Shown here one piece after another: positions 13,282 through 31,210 of a stretch of DNA of 64,000 nt. The stretch lies in assembly GCF_037038585.1 (NCBI RefSeq), contig NC_092556.1, forward strand, positions 450,619-514,618. The letters are read 5' to 3'. The position numbers and the translations under genes are program-made. The stretch comes from Patagioenas fasciata. Lineage: Eukaryota. The notes below the pieces were generated by a model. The model had not been told where the DNA came from and ran no database searches. It was given only the letters and a program-made list of their open reading frames with translations. Each line of letters starts with the position of its first letter. Within the stretch, counting starts at the first letter, position 1.

Positions 13282-13581
13282 GGCAGGGGGTTTTCGGGGC
13301 GCCATGTACAATGGGATCGGGCTGGCGACGCCGCGGGGCAGCGGCACCAACGGCTACGTGCAGCGCAACCTGTCGGCCCTGCGGGGCAAACGGGAGCCCA
13401 GGACGGCCCAGAACGGGGGAGACCCCCCCCCCGGCCCCCCCGGCCCCGATCGGGACGACCCCCCCACCCTGGAAACCGGGGGGCTGCTCCGCAAACCCAA
13501 CCCCGACATCCTCGACCACCAGCGCAAGAGGAAGGTGGAGCTGAAATGCCTGGAGCTGGCCGAGCTCATGGAGGAGCAGGG
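13282..13581 (+). CDS. SRRM2: SRRM2 first coding exon (ATG at 13304): [34 protein letters not shown]...PNPDILDHQRKRKVELKCLELAELMEEQG
   Basis: Strong match to the human SRRM2 N-terminus [24 protein letters not shown]...KRPNPDILDHERKRRVELRCLELEEMMEEQG. Acceptor ccccccgcag| at 13281. Donor GG|gtgagt, phase 2. Confidence 0.9.
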
Positions 13582-13599
13582 GTGAGTGGCTCAAAGTGG

Positions 13600-14760
13600 C
13601 CCGAAACCGCACGAAATTAGCCCAAAACCGACCCGAAATGGGCCCGGACCGCCTTAAAATGCTCCCACATGGCCCCAGAATGGGCCCAGACGGCCTTAAA
13701 ATGAGCCCAGACCACCTTAAAATGCTCCCACGTGGCCCCAAGATGGGCCCAGACCACCTTAAAATGCTCCCAGATGACCCCAGAATGTGCCCAAATGACC
13801 CCAAAATGGGCCCAGAGGGCCTTAAAATGAGCCCAGACCACCTTAAAATGCTCCCACATGGCCCCAAGATGGGCCCAGACCACCTTAAAATGGGCCCAAA
13901 TGACCCCAGAATGGGCCCAGACCGCCTTAAAATGCTCCCGCATGGCCCCAAAATGGGTGCAAATGACCCCAAAATGGGCCCAGATGGCCTTAAAATGCTC
14001 CCATATGTGCCCAGACCACCTTAAAATGCTCCCACGTGGCCCCAAAATGGGCGCAAATGACCCTAAAATGGGCCCAGACCACCTTAAAATGCTCCCACAT
14101 GGCCCCAAAATGGGCCCAGACCACCTTAAAATGCTCCCAGATTAACCCAGAATGTGCCCAAATGACCCCAAAATGGGCCCAGATGGCCCCAAATTCCCCC
14201 CAACACCCCAAAACTCCACTTGGATCCTCCCAACTTCTCCTTCATCCCCATCTCCCGCACCCCCAAACTTCCCTTTTTCCCCCAAAAACCCCCTCTAGAC
14301 CCCCCAAGCACCCCCAAAACCCCTTCTAGACCCCCCAAAACCCCCTCTAGACCCCCCATGCACCCCCAAAACCCCCTCTAGACCCCCCATGCACCCCCAA
14401 AACCCCCTCTAGACCCCCCATGCACCCCCAAAACCCCCTCTAGACCCCCCCAGCACCCCCAAAACCCCCTCTAGACCCCCCCATGCACCCCCAAAACCCC
14501 CTCTAGACCCCCCCCATGCACCCCCAAAACCCCCTCTAGACCCCCCATGCACCCCCAAAACCCCCTCTAGACCCCCCCATGCACCCCCAAAACCCCCTCT
14601 AGACCCCCCCCATGCACCCCCAAAACCCCCTCTAGACCCCCCATGCACCCCCAAAACCCCCTCTAGACCCCCCCATGCACCCCCAAAACCCCCTCTAGAC
14701 CCCCCATGCACCCCCAAAACCCCCTCTAGACCCCCCAAGCACCCCCAACACCCCAAAAAT
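13600..14760. repeat. Two minisatellites in SRRM2 intron: a ~40-bp CCTTAAAATGCTCCCACATGGCCCCAAGATGGGCCCAGAC unit, then a ~30-bp CCCCAAAACCCCCTCTAGACCCCCCATGCA unit
   Basis: Direct reading. Confidence 0.9.
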
Positions 14761-15006
14761 CCCCCCAAAATCCCCCCGAATTCCCCCTCAACTCCACTTG
14801 GACCCTCCCAACTTCTCCTGCATCCCTGACTCCCGTACCCCCAAAACTCCCCTTTTTGCCCCCAAAACTCCCCTTTTTCCCCCCAAAACCCCCTTTTTCC
14901 TCCCCAACTCTCCCCCTTTTACCCCCCAACCCCCCTCCAATCCCCCCCCCAGCCCCCCAAAACCCCCCTTAGCCCCCCAAAAACCCCCTTCTCCCCCCAT
15001 TTCCAG

Positions 15007-15105
15007 GTACACGGAGAGCGAAATCCAGGACAAAGTCTCCACCTTCCGCACGATGCTCTTGGAACGCGACGTGGCCCTGGGGGACCCCGCCGACCCCAAA
15101 CCCGC
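15007..15105 (+). CDS. SRRM2: SRRM2 exon: (G)YTESEIQDKVSTFRTMLLERDVALGDPADPKP
   Basis: Matches human QGYEEQQIQEKVATFRLMLLEKDV. Acceptor ttccag|. Donor GC|gtgagt. The phase continues from the previous exon. Confidence 0.9.
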
Positions 15106-15190
15106 GTGAGTGCCCCCAAAACCCCCCCGAGACCCCCCAAAACCCCCCCTAATTAACCCCCCCCCCCTTAACGAGCTCCCCCCTCGTTAG

Positions 15191-15346
15191 CGTGACGGAA
15201 ACTCATCAGCTGGCCGAAGCTAACGAGAAGAAGAACGAGCGGCTGCGGGCGGCCTTCGGGATCAGCGACAGCTACGTGGACGGGAGCTCCTTCGACCCCG
15301 CGCGCCGCGCCAAAGAGACCCCCCCGGAGCCCCCCGAGCCCCCCAG
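15191..15346 (+). CDS. SRRM2: SRRM2 exon: AVTETHQLAEANEKKNERLRAAFGISDSYVDGSSFDPARRAKETPPEPPEPP
   Basis: Matches human PAVTETHQLAELNEKKNERLRAAFGISDSYVDGSSFDPQRRA. Acceptor cgttag|. Donor CCCCAG|gtaccg. Confidence 0.9.
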
Positions 15347-18636: not shown

Positions 18637-18667
18637 GACGTCACCGCTGACGTCACTGATGACGTCA
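18637..18667 (+). promoter_or_regulatory. Three tandem palindromic CRE-like octamers TGACGTCA within 31 bp, ending 12 bp before the exon-7 acceptor
   Basis: ggtgacgtcaccgctgacgtcactgatgacgtcatctccccccag|. This is intronic and therefore not a codon artefact, unlike the VTS-coding copies inside exon 10. Confidence 0.3.
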
Positions 18668-18739: not shown

Positions 18740-20900
18740 AGTGTCCCCCCAGTGTCCCCCCAGTGTCCCCATTGTGTCCCCCCAGTGTCCCCATTGTGTC
18801 CCCCCAGTGTCCCCATTGTGTCCTCCCAATGTCCCCATTGTGTCCCCCCAGTGTCCCCATTGTGTCCCCTGTTGTGTCCCCCCAATGTGTCCCCATTGTC
18901 TCCCATTGTATTCCTCCCCATTGTGTCCCCCCACTGTCCCCATTGTGTCCTCCCAATGTCCCCATTGTGTCCCCCCAGTGTCCCCATTGTGTCCCCCCAC
19001 TGTCCCCATTGTGTCCCCCATGTCCTTCCCAGTGTCCCCATTGTGTCCCCCCAATGTCCCCCAATGTGTCCCCATTGTGTCCCCCATTGTGTCCCCATTG
19101 TGTCCCCCAGTGTCCCCATTGTGTCCCCTGTTGTGTCCCCCCAATGTCCCCCATTGTGTCCCCATTGTGTCCCCCCAATGTCCCCATTGTGTCCCCTGTT
19201 GTGTCCCCCCAATGTCCCCCAATGTGTCCCCATTGTCTCCCATTGTATTCCCCCCCATTGTGTCCCCCCAGTGTCCCCCCAATGTCCCCCCAGGGTCCCC
19301 ATTGTGTCCCCCCAGTGTCCCCCCAGTGTCCCCGTTGTGTCCCCTGTTGTGTCCCCCCAATGTCCCCCAATGTGTCCCCATTGTATTCCCCCCCATTGTG
19401 TCCCCCCACTGTCCCCATTGTGTCCCCCATGTCCTCCCCAGTGTCCCCATTGTGTCCCTCAGTGTCCCCTCCAGTGTCCCCCAGTGTCCCCATTGTGTCC
19501 CCCCATATCTCCCCATGTCCCCATTGTGTCCCCCCAGTGTCCCCATTGTCTCCCATTGCATCCCCTCCATTGTGTCCCCCATGTCCTCTGATGTCCCCCC
19601 ATTGTCCCCCCCAGGTCCCCATTGTGTCCCCCATGTCCTCCAGTGTCCCCCCAGATCCCCATTGTGTCCCCTATTGTCCCCCCAGATCCCCATTGTGTCC
19701 CCCCATATCTCCCTGTGTCCCCATTGTGTCCCCCCAATATCCCCCTGGTGTCCCCATTGTTTCCCATTGTGTCCCCCCAATGTCCCCATTGTGTCCCCCA
19801 TGTCCTCCAATGTCCCCAGTGTCCCCATTGTGTCCCCCAGTGTCCCCATTGTGACTCCTCCAATGTCCCCATTGTGTCCCCCAGTGTCCCCCCAGTATCC
19901 CCGTTGTGTCCCCCCATATCTCCCTGTGTCCTCAATGTGTCCCCCACCATGTCCCCCAGTGTCCCCATTGTCTCCCCGTTGTGTCCCCCACTGTGTCCCC
20001 CCAATATCCCCATTGTGTCCTCAATGACCTCCAGTGTCCCCCCAGGTCCCCATTGTGTCCCCCAGGTCCTCCTAATGTCCCCCAATGTCCCCATTGTGTC
20101 CCCCCATTGTGTCCCCCCATTGTGTCCCCCCATTGTGTCCCCCCATTGTGTCCCCCATTGTCCCCCATCATGTCCTATCCTCCCCCCCATTGTCCCCCCC
20201 ATTGTCCCCCCCATTGTCCCCTATCATGTCCTGTTGTCCCCCCCATTGTCCCCCCCATTGTCCCCCCCATTGTCCCCCCCATTGTCCCCTATCATGTCCT
20301 GTTGTCCCCCCCATTGTCCCCCCCATTGTCCCCCCCATTGTCCCCCCCATTGTCCCCCCCATTGTGTCCCCCATTGTCCCCCCCATTGTGTCCCCCATTG
20401 TCCCCCATTGTCCCCCATTGTCCCCCATTGTGTCCCCCATTGTGTCCCCCATTGTGTCCCCCATTGTCCCCTATCATGTCCTGTTGTCCCCCCCATTGTC
20501 CCCCCCATTGTCCCCCCCATTGTCCCCCCCATTGTCCCCCCCATTGTCCCCCCCATTGTCCCCCATTGTGTCCCCCATTGTCCCCTATCATGTCCTGTTG
20601 TCCCCCCCATTGTCCCCCATTGTCCCCCATTGTCCCCCATCATGTCCTATCCTCTCCCCATTGTCCCCTATCGTGTCCCCCATCCTGTGTCCCATTGCAT
20701 CCCCCATTGTCTCCTGTCATGTCCCCCATTGTCCCCCTCCATGTCCAATCACGTCTCCCCCATCATGTCCCCCATCGTCCCCCCTTGTCCCCCTTTGCAT
20801 CTTGTTGTGTCCCCCCTTGTGTCCCCCCTTGTGTCCCCCCTTGTGTCCCCCATTGTGTCCCCCATCGTGTCCCCCGTTGTGTCCCCATTGTCCCCGAGCC
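18740..20900. repeat. CCCATTGTGTCCCCCCAGTGTCC-family minisatellite
   Basis: Direct reading. It generates the spurious ORFs 18613..19854, 18741..20027 and others. Confidence 0.9.
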
Positions 20901-20924
20901 GTCGCTCACCCCCTGTCCCCCCAG

Positions 20925-20999
20925 ATCCCCCAGCGAGCCAGCGTCCCAGCGCAGCCGCCGCGACGACGCCCCCTCCTCCTCAGGCTCCTCCCCCTCACG
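20925..20999 (+). CDS. SRRM2: SRRM2 exon: RSPSEPASQRSRRDDAPSSSGSSPSR
   Basis: Acceptor ccccccag|ATCC. Donor TCACG|gtaagt. The phase chain is consistent, and the exon is RS-like. Confidence 0.75.
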
Positions 21000-21082
21000 G
21001 TAAGTCCCGCCCCCTTCCCCCCGCCCCACCCCCCCCCCGCCCCCCAAAACCCCACCAACCGACCCCCCCGTCCCCCCCGCAG

Positions 21083-21128
21083 GTGCCAGCGCCAGGAGGA
21101 GGAGCCGGGGCCGCCCCCCGCACCCCAG
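21083..21128 (+). CDS. SRRM2: SRRM2 46-nt exon: (R)CQRQEEEPGPPPAPQ
   Basis: Acceptor cccccgcag|. Donor CCCAG|gtgagc. Its length of 3n+1 is exactly what is needed to link the phase-2 end of the previous exon to the phase-0 start of the giant exon. Confidence 0.7.
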
Positions 21129-21209
21129 GTGAGCGCCGGGGGGGCCGGGGCCGCCCACCCCCGCCCGCCCCGCCCCCGCTCACCCCCCCCTCTCTCCCTC
21201 TCTCCGCAG

Positions 21210-26248
<5,039 letters not shown>

Positions 26249-26254
26249 GTGAGT

Positions 26255-28075
26255 GTCCCCAAGTGTCCCCAAGTGTCCCCTGGGGGTTCCTGGCCCCATA
26301 GTGGCCCCCAAGTGTCCCCAAATGTCACCCAGTGTCACCAGGTTATCAGCTCAGGGCCCCCCGAGTGTCCCCAAGTGTCACCTCAGGGTCCCCAAATGTC
26401 ACCCAGTGTCACCTTGGGGGTCCCCAGAGTGTCCCCAGATGTCACTCAGTGTCACCTTGGGGTCCCCAGAGTGTCCCCAGATGTCACCCAGTGTCACCAA
26501 GCATCAGCTCAGGGTCCCCCAAGTGTCCCCCGAGTGTCCCCGAATGTCACCCGGTGTCACCAAGTTATCAGCTCAGGGCCCCCCGAGTGTCCCCAAGTGT
26601 CACCTCAGGGTCCCCAAATGTCACCCAGTGTCACCTTGGGGGTCCCTAGAGTGTCCCCAAATGTCACTCAGTGTCACCTTGGGGTCCCCAGAGTGTCCCC
26701 AAATGTCACCCAGTGTCACCAAGCATCAGCTCAGGGTCCCCCGAGTGTCCCCAAATGTCACCCAGTGTCACCAAGTATCAGCTCAGGGGTCCCCAAGTGT
26801 CCCGAAGTGTCACCTCAGGGTCCCCAAATGTCACCCAGTGTCACCTTGGGGTCCCCAGAGTGTCCCCAAATGTCACCCAGTGTCACCTTGGGGTCCCCAG
26901 AGTGTCCCCAAATGTCACCCAGTGTCACCTTGGGGTCCCCAGAGTGTCCCCAAATGTCACCCAGTGTCACCAAGCATCAGCTCAGGGTCCCCCAAGTGTC
27001 CCCCGAGTGTCCCCAAATGTCACCCAGTGTCACCAGGTTATCAGCTCAGGGCCCCCCGAGTGTCCCCGAATGTCACCTCAGGGTCCCCCAATGTCCCCCA
27101 AGTGTCCCCAAATGTCACCCAGTGTCACCAAGCATCAGCTCAGGGCCCCCCGAGTGTCCCCCGAGTGTCCCCAAATGTCACCCAGTGTCACCAGGTTATC
27201 AGCTCAGGGCCCCCCGAGTGTCCCCAAATGTCACCTCAGGGTCCCCAAATGTCACCCAGTGTCACCAAGTATCAGCTCAGGGCCCCCTGAGTGTCCCCAA
27301 ATGTCACCCAGTGTCACCTTGGGGTCCCCAGAGTGTCCCCAAATGTCACCCAGTGTCACCAAGCATCAGCTCAGGGTCCCCCGAGTGTCCCCAAATGTCA
27401 CCCAGTGTCACCAAGTATCAGCTCAGGGGTCCCCAAGTGTCCCCAAGTGTCACCTCAGGGTCCCCAAATGTCACTCAGTGTCACCTCAGGGTCCCCCAAT
27501 GTCCCCCAAGTGTCCCCAAATGTCACCCAGTGTCACCAAGCATCAGCTCAGGGCCCCCCGAGTGTCCCCCGAGTGTCCCCAAATGTCACCCAGTGTCACC
27601 AGGTTATCAGCTCAGGGCCCCCCGAGTGTCCCCAAATGTCACCTCAGGGTCCCCAAATGTCACCCAGTGTCACCAAGCATCAGCTCAGGGCCCCCTGAGT
27701 GTCCCCAAGTGTCACCCAGTGTCACCTTGGGGTCCCCAGAGTGTCCCCAAATGTCACCCAGTGTCACCAGGTTATCAGCTCAGGGCCCCCTGAGTGTCCC
27801 CAAATGTCACCCAGTGTCACCTTGGGGGTCCCTAGAGTGTCCCCAAATGTCACCCAGTGTCACCTTGGGGGTCCCTAGAGTGTCCCCAAATGTCACTCAG
27901 TGTCACCTTGGGGTCCCCAGAGTGTCCCCAAATGTCACCCAGTGTCACCAAGCATCAGCTCAGGGTCCCCCAAGTGTCCCCAAGTGTCACCTCAGGGTCC
28001 CCCAAGTGTCCCCATTGTCCCCCATGTTGCCCCCATTGTCCCCGGGCCTGGTGTCCCCGGTGTCCCCAATGTCCC
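26255..28075. repeat. Minisatellite GTGTCCCCAAATGTCACCCAGTGTCACC... in the intron between the two SRRM2 poly-Ser exons
   Basis: Direct reading. It generates the spurious ORFs 26249..27793 and 26671..28947. Confidence 0.9.
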
Positions 28076-28089
28076 CCTTGTCCCCACAG

Positions 28090-28255
28090 GTGCCCCGCCC
28101 CCCCGGCGCTGCCATCGGCCCCCGACGCCCCCGACGTCCCCGCCATCGTCCCCGTGGTCCCCGTGGTCCCCAAGCGCCGCAAGCGCCGCAGCTCCAGCTC
28201 CTCCTCCTCCTCCTCTTCCTCCTCCTCCTCCTCCTCTTCCTCTTCCTCCTCCTCC

Positions 28256-28290
<35 letters not shown>

Positions 28291-28780
28291 CTCCTCTTCT
28301 TCCTCCTCCTCCTCCTCCTCCTCCTCCTCTTCCTCCTCCCCCGACGCCCCCCCCGCCCCCGACTCCGCCCCCGACTCCGCCCCCGCCGCCAAATCCCCGC
28401 CCCCTGCCCCCGCGCAGACCCCGCCCCCCGCCGTGACGTCAGCGGTGACGTCAGCGACCACCTCGGCGCCGCCCCCCGCCACCTCGGCCCCGCCCCCCGC
28501 CACCTCCGCCCCCGCCGCCCCCTCCCTGCTGTCCATCAAACCCTCGCCCCGCCCCCTGGCCCCGCCCACCCCCCGCCCCGCCCTCCCCCGCCCCTCGGGC
28601 ACCCCCCGCCCCTCCCCCAACCCCCTGCTGTCCCTCAGCCCCTCCCCCAGCCGAGGGGGCGTGGCCACCCGCGGGCCCCTCCCCCTGTTGGGGCGCGGCC
28701 CCGCCTTCCCCCGCCCCCCCACCCCCTTCCTGGCCACGCCCACCCGCTCCCCATTGGCCGCTTGTTACACCCCGCCCTCC
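28090..28780 (+). CDS. SRRM2: SRRM2 second poly-Ser exon: (P)CPAPPALPSAPDAPDVPAIVPVVPVVPKRRKRRSSSS(~55 S)PDAPPAPDSAPDSAPAAKSPPPAPAQTPPP...; 3' end unresolved
   Basis: Acceptor ccccacag|GTGCCC with correct phase (CC+G). KRRKRR-polySer corresponds to human PAKRKRRSSSSS...SPSPAKPGPQALPKPASPKKPPP. An interspersed CCCGGACGCCTGGGTCCC element is present by ~28790, so the coding sequence probably ends before that point. No downstream RS-rich terminal exons were found. Confidence 0.6.
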
Positions 28781-29132
28781 CCGGCCCGGACGCCCGGGTC
28801 CCCCTTTTGGCGCGGGCTCCCCGGACGCCTGGGTCCCTGCGTTCACCGCTATCACGGGATTGGCTGCGGCGGCCCCGGACGCCTGGGTCCCTGCTCCTCC
28901 TCCTCCTCCTCCTCCTCCTCCTCCTGCCTCCACCGTTTCTACGGTAACGGGGGGGCGCTGGGCGGGGGGGGGGATGGGCAGCCCCGGACGCCTGGGTCCC
29001 CAGCGCTTGGCGGGAAGCGCCCTGATTGGCGGAGGGCTGGGGGGGGGGGGCGGGTGCTGCCACCACCACCACCACCCCCCGCGCCCCTCCCCCCCCCGAA
29101 ACCCCTCCCCCTTCGCGGCCACGCCCACCAGC

Positions 29133-29753
29133 ATGGCCGCCCGCGCCTACAGCGGCGCCTCCCAGTACAACCTGGGGCTCTCCCAGTACAACCTGGGGGG
29201 CGCCCAGTACAGCGTGGGCGGGGCCTCCCAGTACAGCGTGGGCGGGGCCTCCCAGTACAGCATGGGCGGGGCCTCCCAGTACAACATGGGCGGGGCCTCC
29301 CAGTACAACCTGGGCGTCTCCCAGTATAACATGGGGGTCTCCCAGTACAACATGGGGGGCTCCCAGTACAACCTCCAGTACGCCCAGTATGCCCAGTACA
29401 CCCAGTACGAGGCCGCCGGGGGGGGAGGGGAGGCCCAGTACGCCCAGTTCGCCGCCAGCGCCGCCCAGTACGCGGCCGCCCAGCAGGGGGCGGCGCCCGC
29501 CGAGGGCTCCGCCCACCCGGCCGGCGCCGGCCAATCGGGGGCCGCGGGGGGCGGGGCCTGGGCCGCGGGGGAGGGGCAGCAGGAGGCCTGGGGGGGAGCG
29601 GCTGCTGGGGGGGGAGGGGCCGGGGCGGCGGGGGGGGCGGGGGGGGGGAGGGGCGGGGGGGAGCACGGGGGTGACCTGGGGGGCGTGGGTGGCGGGGGGG
29701 ACCGCCCCATAAGTGGGGGGCGGGGACCCAGAGACGGAGCCTCTGCCCCATAG
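29133..29753 (+). CDS. Uncharacterised ORF: MAARAYSGASQYNLGLSQYNLGGAQYSVGGASQYSVGG... with about ten 9-aa (27-bp) GASQYN(L/M/S)G repeats, then a QY/A/G-rich tail
   Basis: Listed ORF 28860..29753, with a strong Kozak ATG (accagcATGG) at 29133. The repeat period is a multiple of 3 and the variation sits at the codon level, which is unlike the surrounding satellites. A GCCACGCCCACC box lies immediately upstream. No homolog was recognised. Confidence 0.35.
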   Translation: MAARAYSGASQYNLGLSQYNLGGAQYSVGGASQYSVGGASQYSMGGASQYNMGGASQYNLGVSQYNMGVSQYNMGGSQYNLQYAQYAQYTQYEAAGGGGEAQYAQFAASAAQYAAAQQGAAPAEGSAHPAGAGQSGAAGGGAWAAGEGQQEAWGGAAAGGGGAGAAGGAGGGRGGGEHGGDLGGVGGGGDRPISGGRGPRDGASAP

Positions 29754-29759
29754 GAGGAG

Positions 29760-31210
29760 CCTCTGACGTGGAACAGGGGGTTCTGACCCATAAGTGGGGG
29801 GTGGACCCATAGAAGGAGCCTCTGCCCCATAGGAGGAGCCTCTGCCCCATAGAAGGAGCCTCTAACGTGGAACAGGGCGTTCTGACCCATAAGTGGGGGG
29901 TGGACCCATAGGTTGGGGGGTTGACCCATAGAAGGAGCCTCTGCCCCATAGGAGAAGCATCTGATGCAGAACAAGGGCGTGCGACCCATAAGTGGGGGGT
30001 GGACCCATAGAAGGAGCCTCTGCCCCATAGATGGAGCATCTGACGTGGAACAGGGGGTTCTGACCCATAAGTGGGGGGTGGACCCATAGGTTGGGGGGTG
30101 ACCCATAGAAGGAGCCTCTGCCCCATAGACGGAACCTCTGCCCCATAGAAGGAGCCTCTGCCCCATAGGAGAAGCATCTGGTGCAGAACAAGGGGGTGCG
30201 ACCCATAAATGGGGGAGTTGACCCATAGAAGGAGCCTCTGCCCCATAGATGGAGCCTCTGACATGGAACAGGGGGTTCTGACCCATAAGTGGGGGGTGGA
30301 CCCATAGAAGGAGCCTTTGCCCCATAGATGGAGCCTCTGACGTGGAACAGGGGGTTCTGACCCATAAGTGGGGGGTGGACCCATAGGTTGGGGGGTGACC
30401 CATAGAAGGAGCCTCTGCCCCATAGACGGAACCTCTGCCCCATAGAAGGAGCCTCTGCCCCATAGACGGAGCATCTGATGTGGAACAGGGTTCTGACCCA
30501 TAAGTGGGGGGTGTGACCCATAGATGGAGCCTCTGCCCCATAGATGGAACATCTGACATGGAACAAGGGGTTCTGACCCATAAGTGGGGGGTGTGACCCA
30601 TAGAGCATCTGACATTGGACAAGGGGGTCTGACCCAGAGATGGAGACTCTGCCCCATAGATGAAGCCTCTGCCCCATAGATGAAGCCTCTGCCCCATAGA
30701 AGGGAACATCTGACCCATAAGTAAGGGGTGTGACCCATAGGTTGGGGTTTCTGCCCCATAAGTGGGGGGTTGACCCATAGATGGAGCCTCTGCCCCATAG
30801 AAGGAACATCTGACCTGTAATGAGGGGGTCTGACCCATAAGTGGGGATGTGACCCATAGGTTGGGGGGGGATGTGACCCATAGGTTGGGGGGGGGTCTGA
30901 CCCATAAGTGGGGGGTGTGACCCATAAGTGGGGACTCTGCCCCAGAGAAACAACATCTGGTCCATAGTGGGGGGCTTGACCCATAGAAGGAGCTTCTGCC
31001 CCATAGCGGGTCCCCATAGGTGGGGGGTTCTGCCCCATAGAATGAACATCTGAGCCGTAACAAGGGGGGCTGCCCCATAGAAGGAGCCTCTGCCCCATAG
31101 AGGGGGGTCTGCCCCATAGAAGGATCATCAGCCCCATAGCGGGGGGTGCGACCCATAGAAAGCTCATCTGCCCCATAGTGGGGTGTTCCCTGCCCCATAG
31201 CGGGGGGTCC
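29760..31210. repeat. Complex minisatellite (ccatagaaggagcctctgccccatag / gacccataagtggggggtggaccc units)
   Basis: Direct reading. It generates the 826-aa spurious minus-strand ORF 28939..31419. Confidence 0.9.

Follow-up and report, generated by a model that had tools for sequence, protein, structure and literature searches.

Introduction

Nuclear speckles depend on two proteins, SON and SRRM2, and the role of SRRM2 requires its disordered C terminus (PMC7671692). A tyrosine-rich C-terminal domain is also found in Rbfox, where, according to Ying et al. (2017) as cited in PMC9410892, it drives aggregation, speckle localization, and splicing activation. Here we examine a glutamine/tyrosine-rich (Q/Y-rich) open reading frame (ORF) that starts at an ATG at position 29133, between SRRM2 and ELOB, in a 64,000-nucleotide stretch of the Patagioenas fasciata genome (hereafter, the window; RefSeq assembly GCF_037038585.1, contig NC_092556.1, positions 450,619 to 514,618, forward strand). 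The ORF had been presented in a preliminary description of this DNA as a separate, unassigned gene candidate. Comparison with other birds indicates that the Q/Y-rich sequence is conserved coding sequence and points, with a probability that we put at about 0.72, to its being the 3′ portion of the terminal coding exon in bird SRRM2. We favor this reading because of synteny, conservation of the frame, selection that is specific to that frame, and continuity with the SRRM2 poly-Ser frame in three species. SRRM2 is a known scaffold protein, and the sequence would then be a C-terminal module specific to the bird lineage.

Repeat Structure and Frame-Specific Selection in the Q/Y-Rich Region

The Q/Y-rich sequence lies about 800 bp 3′ of the second SRRM2 poly-Ser tract and 3.8 kb from the ELOB stop codon, downstream of, and on the same strand as, the cwf21-type exons and the giant arginine/serine-rich (RS) exon of SRRM2. 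It is made up of the following parts.

29133-29135, + strand: Met codon (M-A-A/S-R), conserved in seven birds
29152-29375, + strand: ten SQY(N/S)-(L/M/V)-G(G)(A) units of 21 or 24 bp, from Tandem Repeats Finder (TRF) and the in-frame CAGTAY cores
29376-29486, + strand: QYAQYAQYTQY ... AQYAQFAASAAQYAAAQQ, the best-conserved part of the Q/Y-rich region
29487-29638, + strand: Ala/Gly-rich linker in very G-rich DNA (GC 0.90), poorly conserved (translation, alignments)
29713-29753, + strand: remainder of the 29133 ORF, which lies past the conserved stop, enters a 20-bp satellite that starts at 29725, and is outside the conserved coding sequence

The ORF opened by the ATG at 29133 has 206 codons and ends at 29753. 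Its length carries no weight, because at 72-76% G+C this stretch is open in every one of the six frames, and length was discarded as evidence for coding. TRF reports a period of 24, 9.8 copies, 84% matches, and a score of 232 at 29152-29372, and reading by codon resolves the array into ten units of the pattern G-(G)-(A)-S-Q-Y-(N/S)-(L/M/V) within the first ~81 codons. The preliminary description had counted about ten imperfect repeats, which agrees with these ten SQY(N/S) units, but it had given them a period of 27 bp (9 aa), whereas the period is 21 or 24 bp (7-8 aa). Its account of the sequence that follows holds, with QYAQYAQYTQY and AQYAQFAASAAQYAAAQQ giving way to Ala/Gly-rich sequence, as does its statement that the repeats vary synonymously or conservatively by codon, which can be read directly from the sequence: the units differ by synonymous changes (GGC/GGG, TAC/TAT, CTG/CTC) or by conservative ones (L/M/V, N/S). 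All 16 CCAGTAY cores at 29162-29465 share one frame, with spacings of 21, 24, 12, 9, 33, and 30. G+C content at the third codon position is 0.97 in the Q/Y frame, compared with 0.62 and 0.50 in the other frames.

We compared the window with DNA around ELOB in other species. The seven birds considered are the window, Caloenas (a pigeon), Buteo (a buzzard), Larus (a gull), Taeniopygia and Lonchura (estrildid finches), and Myiozetetes (a suboscine passerine). In the six birds other than P. fasciata, a Q/Y-rich sequence is found in the same place and orientation, between the SRRM2 poly-Ser and ELOB. In comparisons with buzzard and zebra finch, the Q/Y block is the only DNA conserved between the poly-Ser and the last ELOB exon, apart from simple repeats of the poly-Ser type and a satellite shared with buzzard. 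The repeat units themselves differ by order (SQYNLG in pigeons, AQYGMGG in buzzard, SQYSPAS in finches), with the Q-Y dipeptide and the frame retained. Five species harbor 16, 22, 18, 20, and 19 CAGTAY motifs, every one of them in the frame of the conserved Met codon. In the multispecies alignments AQ(Y/F)AxSAAQYAA is nearly invariant, and further motifs of the tail are ATPFLATP, CLHRFHGN, AASAAQYAA, and GVTWGSWVSPAP. The codon at the fourth position encodes Arg by CGC, CGG, or AGG in different birds. Between zebra finch and Lonchura, eight of nine indels within the ORF are multiples of 3, compared with lengths of 2, 6, and 1 directly after the stop.

Ratios of nonsynonymous to synonymous change (dN/dS) were obtained as simple Nei-Gojobori counts on pairwise, frame-agnostic DNA alignments of repetitive sequence. 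For the Q/Y-rich region they are as follows.

Finches: 0.44 in the Q/Y frame; 0.70 and 1.51 in the other sense frames
Pigeons: 0.64 in the Q/Y frame; 1.04 and 1.03 in the other sense frames
Buzzard/gull: 0.28 in the Q/Y frame; 1.08 and 3.12 in the other sense frames

Thus, the test that the preliminary description had proposed, dN/dS across birds, places the Q/Y frame at 0.28-0.64 and the other sense frames at 0.70-3.12. Of the frames in a six-frame control, the antisense frame with the same wobble position as the Q/Y frame is alone in approaching its dN/dS. This is expected, and the antisense frame contains stops. When all three segments from the poly-Ser to the conserved stop are considered in four species pairs, the values are 0.09-0.64 in the coding frame, compared with 0.7-4.2 in the others.

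Could the 3-bp periodicity have a source other than translation? A noncoding minisatellite, or a conserved noncoding element built of triplet units, would account for several aspects of the region, as satellites surround it, much of it is GCC/GGC-like triplet sequence that would slip in threes, and no homologous protein is on record. Nevertheless, we regard this explanation as extremely unlikely. In each of four independent species pairs the Q/Y frame has a dN/dS far lower than the other frames do, Arg is held through three different codons, the stop is conserved, and the pattern of indels shifts right after it. In addition, the CCAGTAY cluster is unique in the 64-kb window, with only three more + strand occurrences in the other 63 kb. 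The preliminary description had argued for coding selection over satellite drift, partly from the nontriplet periods of the other repeats; the neighboring arrays indeed have periods of 10/52/158 bp (26295-28014) and 20/79 bp (29725-30944), and the frame-specific purifying selection detected against the six other birds supports its argument. A recurrence of the same repeat elsewhere as a noncoding satellite with frame-breaking indels, which it had named as grounds for rejection, was not observed: the cluster is unique in the window and the frame is held in five of the seven birds. The breaks in the other two are single 1-bp indels, downstream of which the Q-Y periodicity is intact.

Coding Sequence Upstream of the Conserved Methionine

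The sequence between the second SRRM2 poly-Ser tract and position 29133 contains the following segments.

28151-28339, + strand: KRRKRR followed by the long, second poly-Ser tract of SRRM2 (translation and TRF; (TCC/AGC)n at 28198-28339)
28340-28963, + strand: Pro/Ala/Thr-rich region followed by conserved motifs (PLLSL, GPLPLLGRG, TPFLATPTR, SPFWRG, PGRLGPC-HR(Y/F)HG repeats), in the poly-Ser frame and kept in five birds
28974-29132, + strand: coding sequence just 5′ of 29133, (M)GSPGRLGPQRLAG...GCCHHHHH...PSPFAATPTS, in frame with 29133

In every species, the sequence upstream of the Met encodes conserved peptides in the same frame, namely PRPPGSLLSL, GPFPLL, ATPFLATP, SPF(L/W)RG, GRLGxCLHRFHGN repeats, GCC(Y/H)H, and PSPFAxTP. 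The last two are kept in all birds examined, and the third-position differences within them are synonymous. The KRRKRR-poly-Ser sequence is also present in buzzard, gull, and the finches, and in Buteo, Larus, and Taeniopygia the Q/Y frame is free of stops all the way back to it. The 600 nt before the Met are under stronger constraint than the Q/Y-rich part, with the following dN/dS values.

Zebra finch/Lonchura: 0.09 (25 synonymous, 6 nonsynonymous)
Zebra finch/Myiozetetes: 0.17
Buzzard/gull: 0.33
Buzzard/zebra finch: 0.22

Other frames of the same 600 nt give 1.6-4.2 in these pairs. Between the window and Caloenas, dN/dS at 28550-29132 is 0.33 in the coding frame and 1.7-2.3 in the others, and in the segment that adjoins the poly-Ser the corresponding values are 0.45 versus 0.75 and 2.84.

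The upstream 600 nt share the coding frame of the Q/Y-rich region, and from these alignments the ATG at 29133 is thus an internal Met codon and not a start codon. The preliminary description was correct about the existence of the 206-codon ORF and not about where its coding sequence begins. An independent gene would be expected to have noncoding sequence before its start, and here conserved peptides extend right up to the Met (PSPFAxTPxM). We did weigh a stand-alone gene, nested in or directly after the 3′ end of SRRM2, with its own promoter just upstream of 29133 and a product of ~190 aa that is Q/Y-rich and is translated from a conserved Kozak ATG. The Met codon and its context (RCC/AGC-ATG-G) are kept in seven birds, most species have CCAAT/ATTGG and GC-box-like sequences 50-135 nt upstream, and the ORF has a conserved stop. 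However, the would-be promoter and 5′ untranslated region (UTR) are themselves under purifying selection in the same frame, no stop separates the upstream sequence from the SRRM2 poly-Ser in three species, and an internal alternative start is not needed to explain the data. We therefore consider a stand-alone gene very unlikely. The promoter candidate (CCAAT, GC boxes, and a TOP-like pyrimidine block) was dropped because these sequences are coding: the constraint in the same frame argues that neither the boxes nor the pyrimidine block belong to a promoter or 5′ UTR. A splice acceptor immediately before the ATG was also rejected, as its AG is not conserved.

The upstream segment harbors a repeat of a different composition. 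A 19-bp DNA motif, CCCCGGACGCCTGGGTCCC, occurs in three copies in the window (28819-29003) and also in two of the comparison loci, L003 (about 18900-19100, − strand) and L002 (about 22750-22950, − strand). It encodes the conserved Cys/His repeat PGRLGxC-L-H-R-F-H-G-N, spaced about C-x7-8-C-x-H-x2-H and followed by GCC(Y/H)H(H)n. The repeat may be a metal-binding motif; it matches no described domain. In the window, a (CCT/TCC)n tract of about 14 copies at 28890-28931 adds ~10 extra Ser residues inside one of the Cys/His repeats, and this insertion is missing in Caloenas, buzzard, gull, and the passerines.

The C-Terminal End and the Homopolymer Frameshifts

The conserved frame ends upstream of the stop codon of the 29133 ORF, and in the window it is reached only across two homopolymers.

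28964-28973, + strand: G10 homopolymer with an apparent +1 G, at which the poly-Ser frame slips into the 29133 frame; removal of one G joins the frames
29639-29648, + strand: second G10 homopolymer with an apparent +1 G, at which the sequence slips out of the conserved frame; removal of one G restores it
29668-29712, + strand: C-terminal peptide kept across the birds, G-VTWGAWVAGGTAP, with its TAA stop (29710-29712), both in the +1 frame with respect to 29133

The peptide GV(T/S)WGxWV..A(P/Q) is common to all seven birds, and a stop follows it in all but Myiozetetes. Between the window and Caloenas the four differences in this block are all synonymous, including a change of TAA to TAG, and between zebra finch and Lonchura the same holds for three of three. 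Immediately 3′ of the conserved stop the alignment between the window and Caloenas collapses. The preliminary description had carried the ORF to 29753; its last ~45 codons lie outside the conserved frame, and the coding sequence would instead end at the TAA of 29710-29712. Deletion of one G from each G10 run yields a single ORF of 519 codons at 28151-29712. In Buteo, Larus, and Taeniopygia the frame is open from KRRKRR-poly-Ser through the Q/Y-rich region. We also considered a splice donor at a conserved GTGACC/GTGAGC near the end of the frame; it was rejected, as Lonchura has GTCAGC at this position and the changes are synonymous. Between 29470 and 29671 the window contains no GT.

These frameshifts raise the possibility that the tail is real in other birds and has been inactivated in pigeons, so that pigeon SRRM2 would end at 29327-29329 and the Q/Y-rich sequence would be an untranslated relic. 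The assembled poly-Ser frame does stop at 29329, and relative to buzzard and Lonchura there are two frameshifts in the window and at least four in Caloenas. Against this, both frameshifts in the window consist of one extra G in a G10 run, a typical homopolymer error, and dN/dS between the two pigeons is 0.33 upstream and 0.64 in the Q/Y-rich region, compared with about 1.0-2.3 in other frames. Moreover, the differences in the C-terminal block, down to the stop-to-stop change, are exclusively synonymous, which indicates that selection acted on the full frame after the pigeon lineages split. Pigeon-specific inactivation is thus unlikely, and we take the two extra Gs of the window to be assembly errors or very recent changes. 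When zebra finch is compared with Lonchura, one of its G10 runs likewise contains an additional G. In Larus the break is one 1-bp deletion, and Caloenas has two such deletions in the Q/Y-rich part and more upstream.

Existing gene models differ in how they treat this end. The annotated SRRM2 models of Buteo, Lonchura, Myiozetetes, and Larus end in or beside the Q/Y-rich region, at stops in different frames, which fits read-through models that were derailed by homopolymer frameshifts. In comparison-locus coordinates, the annotated 3′ ends are at 18654 (L003), 24083 (L009), 17209 (L010), 7972 (L013), and 19732 (L002), and the zebra finch SRRM2 model (816 aa) runs 2.4 kb past the Q/Y-rich region. 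The C terminus of bird SRRM2 appears to be inconsistently annotated, and in these birds it is probably misannotated.

Composition, Predicted Disorder, and Homology Searches

Residues 1-118, the Q/Y-rich segment, consist of 18.6% Ala, 16.9% Gly, 16.1% Gln, 14.4% Tyr, 11.9% Ser, and 5.9% Asn, with Glu and Arg together below 3%. The region therefore has the composition of prion-like sequences, with much Q/N/S/G/Y and few charged or aliphatic residues. An AlphaFold2 model from the single sequence, a weak form of evidence, is unstructured (mean pLDDT 44.7, pTM 0.16, no residue at or above 70). The composition and the model both agree with the prion-like, low-complexity character that the preliminary description had proposed.

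Searches for relatives were negative within their respective limits. Pfam contains no family for the 29133 ORF at E values up to 10, a sequence search of the PDB matched His-tags only, and an exact look-up found that the ORF product is not on record. A protein search with a single query gave no match, at a sensitivity that a local test (E = 0.42) showed to be too low for orthologues from other orders. A search with a four-bird profile, in which a true orthologue would by local test score E of about 6e-10, likewise gave no match among 8000 candidates, probably because it was swamped by poly-Ala/Gly words. A phmmer scan of representative proteins gave 38 matches; the 15 retrieved are all unrelated tandem-repeat proteins, and the four that were looked up are hypothetical or unnamed. 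No homology to FUS/EWSR1/TAF15 or to another described family was found in Pfam, PDB, or the representative proteins, and a literature search found nothing on a bird-specific SRRM2 tail.

The RS exons that form the C terminus of mammalian SRRM2 (…RSRSPRKPIDSLRDSRS…HRSSRSP) had no match downstream of the poly-Ser in the window when a human query sequence was used, a result that we treat as a lead. The preliminary description had noted that the ORF does not resemble these exons, and the comparison with the human sequence agrees with this.

Gene Context in the Window and around ELOB in Other Species

Searches with human SRRM2 and ELOB query sequences established which genes lie on either side and on which strand.

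13304-15317, + strand: N-terminal (cwf21-type) exons of SRRM2, by tblastn, which fix the identity and strand of the gene
20076-26249, + strand: RS-rich open frame of 2058 codons, the giant RS exon, which ends in the first SRRM2 poly-Ser tract
28088-28089, + strand: putative splice acceptor, AG after a long pyrimidine tract, reading ...cccttgtccccacag/gtgcccc
35873-33537, − strand: ELOB, by tblastn

The N-terminal matches comprise three exons with 58-93% identity (E of about 5e-25), and RS repeats lie at about 21000-22400. KRRKRR-poly-Ser presumably corresponds to ...AKRKRRSSSS... of human SRRM2, and the terminal coding exon of SRRM2 probably starts at the acceptor at 28088-28089 (…ccccacag/g). 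The ELOB proteins of the window and of the Nicobar pigeon share 97% identity. The match to the first SRRM2 exon (13304-13582) contains an additional ~11 residues and a divergent stretch (…GKREPRTAQNGGDPPPGPPGPDRDDPPTLETGG…) relative to the human N terminus, and the extra residues could be a real insertion or an unrecognized short intron.

Satellites are found on both sides of the exon. Between the first poly-Ser tract (ending at about 26249) and the KRRKRR-poly-Ser exon lies a 1.7-kb satellite (26295-28014) with units of 10/42/52/158 bp and a consensus of about GTCCCCAAATGTCACCCAGTGTCACC. It is open in several frames, but none of its base periods is divisible by three, and it is therefore probably a tandem array that fills an intron. 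A strong acceptor follows at 28088-28089. Directly past the conserved stop, a satellite with a 20-bp unit (GACCCATAGAAGGAGCCTCT; higher-order periods of 79 and 297 bp) extends over 29725-30944 and on to about 33100, so that it occupies much of the gap to ELOB. Caloenas shares this satellite, with about 68-70% identity.

The ELOB or ELOB-like gene of quail, parrot, cuckoo, and alligator has neighbors other than SRRM2 (QPRT, an ATP2A1-like ATPase, INO80E), and at two turtle loci nothing was found within 10 kb. The flanks in the quail, parrot, alligator, and cuckoo loci (L004, L005, L006, L011, and L012) also include a RabGAP-TBC gene. The alligator ELOB-like copy, which spans only 574 bp, could be a retrocopy. 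Some lineages may have relocated or duplicated ELOB; alternatively, the divergent flanks are assembly artifacts.

Proposed Assignment of the Q/Y-Rich Region to SRRM2

The preliminary description had asked whether the ORF might be a 3′ exon of SRRM2. The findings above favor that option, as the coding frame runs upstream into KRRKRR-poly-Ser in three birds, and they do not support a separate ORF between SRRM2 and ELOB. Several observations nevertheless weigh against this assignment. As assembled, the window does not contain one frame: a stop at 29327-29329 closes the poly-Ser frame, the Q/Y-rich sequence is read in another, and the C-terminal peptide is in a third. The frameshifts add up to two in the window, at least four in Caloenas, one each in Larus and zebra finch, and several in Myiozetetes, a number that is high for constrained coding sequence unless GC-extreme regions are poorly assembled. 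Continuity of the exon from the poly-Ser to the Q/Y-rich region is inferred from DNA alone. The single-query, profile, and phmmer searches retrieved no annotated protein with the Q/Y-rich region, local alignments of the human SRRM2 C terminus with three bird tails were no better than shuffles, and the + strand of the window has no AATAAA/ATTAAA between the conserved stop and ELOB. Finally, the birds compared are all Neoaves. We take most of the frame breaks across birds to be probable assembly errors in extremely GC-rich sequence, because the Q-Y periodicity persists downstream of them and the comparison of the two pigeons reveals selection.

If the Q/Y-rich region is indeed the end of SRRM2, the exon that carries the second poly-Ser would not be spliced to RS exons of the mammalian type and would instead run on for about 1.4 kb. 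It would encode, in order, a Pro/Ala/Thr-rich stretch, short motifs (PRPPGSLLSL, GPFPLL, ATPFLATP, SPF(L/W)RG), two or three Cys/His repeats (GRLGxC-L-H-R-F-H-G-N), a GCC(Y/H)H(H)n patch, Met-Ala-Ala-Arg, and 16-22 Q-Y dipeptides set in Gly/Ser/Ala/Asn/Met, and would end with an Ala/Gly linker, GV(T/S)WGxWV..A(P/Q), and the stop. We infer that this tail is translated as part of SRRM2. Its tyrosines would act as aromatic "stickers" next to the arginine-rich RS regions of the protein and, by analogy with the tyrosine-rich domain of Rbfox and with FUS-type domains, could raise the self-association valency of the disordered, speckle-building C terminus.

A more far-reaching proposal, which we advance only tentatively and think doubtful as a whole, is that at least in the Neoaves a new module has taken the place of the Arg/Ser-rich C terminus of SRRM2. 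The module would comprise the Cys/His repeats, which may bind metal, a patch of His residues, and a prion-like domain rich in Tyr and Gln, in which Q-Y persists although the repeat units change from one order to another; the internal Met, with its strong Kozak context, might also yield a separate protein of ~190 aa. Under this proposal, birds would build their speckles on another sticker chemistry, with Tyr and Arg combined in one polypeptide. If translated, the conserved Tyr-rich prion-like tail would be a natural variant of a nuclear-speckle scaffold and would pose the question of whether aromatic stickers on an Arg-rich scaffold alter the properties of the condensate. The tail also illustrates how coding sequence can escape notice in the GC-rich "dark" regions of bird microchromosomes.

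Comparison with Known Systems

The mammalian SRRM2 C-terminal region (PMC7671692, PMC9410892) is the most direct point of reference. The gene is the same, with cwf21-type exons, a giant RS exon, KRRKRR-poly-Ser, and a tail-to-tail arrangement with ELOB, and in both cases the C-terminal part is long, disordered, and of low complexity, without a folded domain. However, whereas the mammalian protein ends in Arg/Ser-rich exons after the second poly-Ser, the bird sequence harbors Cys/His repeats, the Q/Y-rich region, and a Trp-containing end, apparently all in one continuous exon.

The [G/S]Y[G/S]Q-rich prion-like domains of FUS, EWSR1, and TAF15 resemble the bird tail in composition, in the near absence of charge, in the regular spacing of Tyr, and in predicted disorder, and their hosts, too, are RNA-processing proteins that are arginine-rich elsewhere. 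In contrast to these domains, with which it shares no sequence homology, the bird tail is richer in Ala, Met, and Asn, and its units differ between bird orders. The location is also different, as the bird domain would be C terminal on a splicing scaffold and the FUS-type domains are N terminal on proteins with an RNA-recognition motif (RRM). The oligopeptide repeats of yeast Sup35 (PQGGYQQYN, 9 aa) are likewise short, imperfect tandem repeats with Q-Y-N/Gly and a period that is a multiple of three, but the likeness is compositional only: the proteins and kingdoms are unrelated and the unit is 9 aa in Sup35 compared with 7-8 aa here. The closest functional analogy is to the tyrosine-rich domain of Rbfox, which, though unrelated in sequence, protein family, and repeat architecture, is likewise a Tyr-rich, low-complexity C terminus of a splicing factor.

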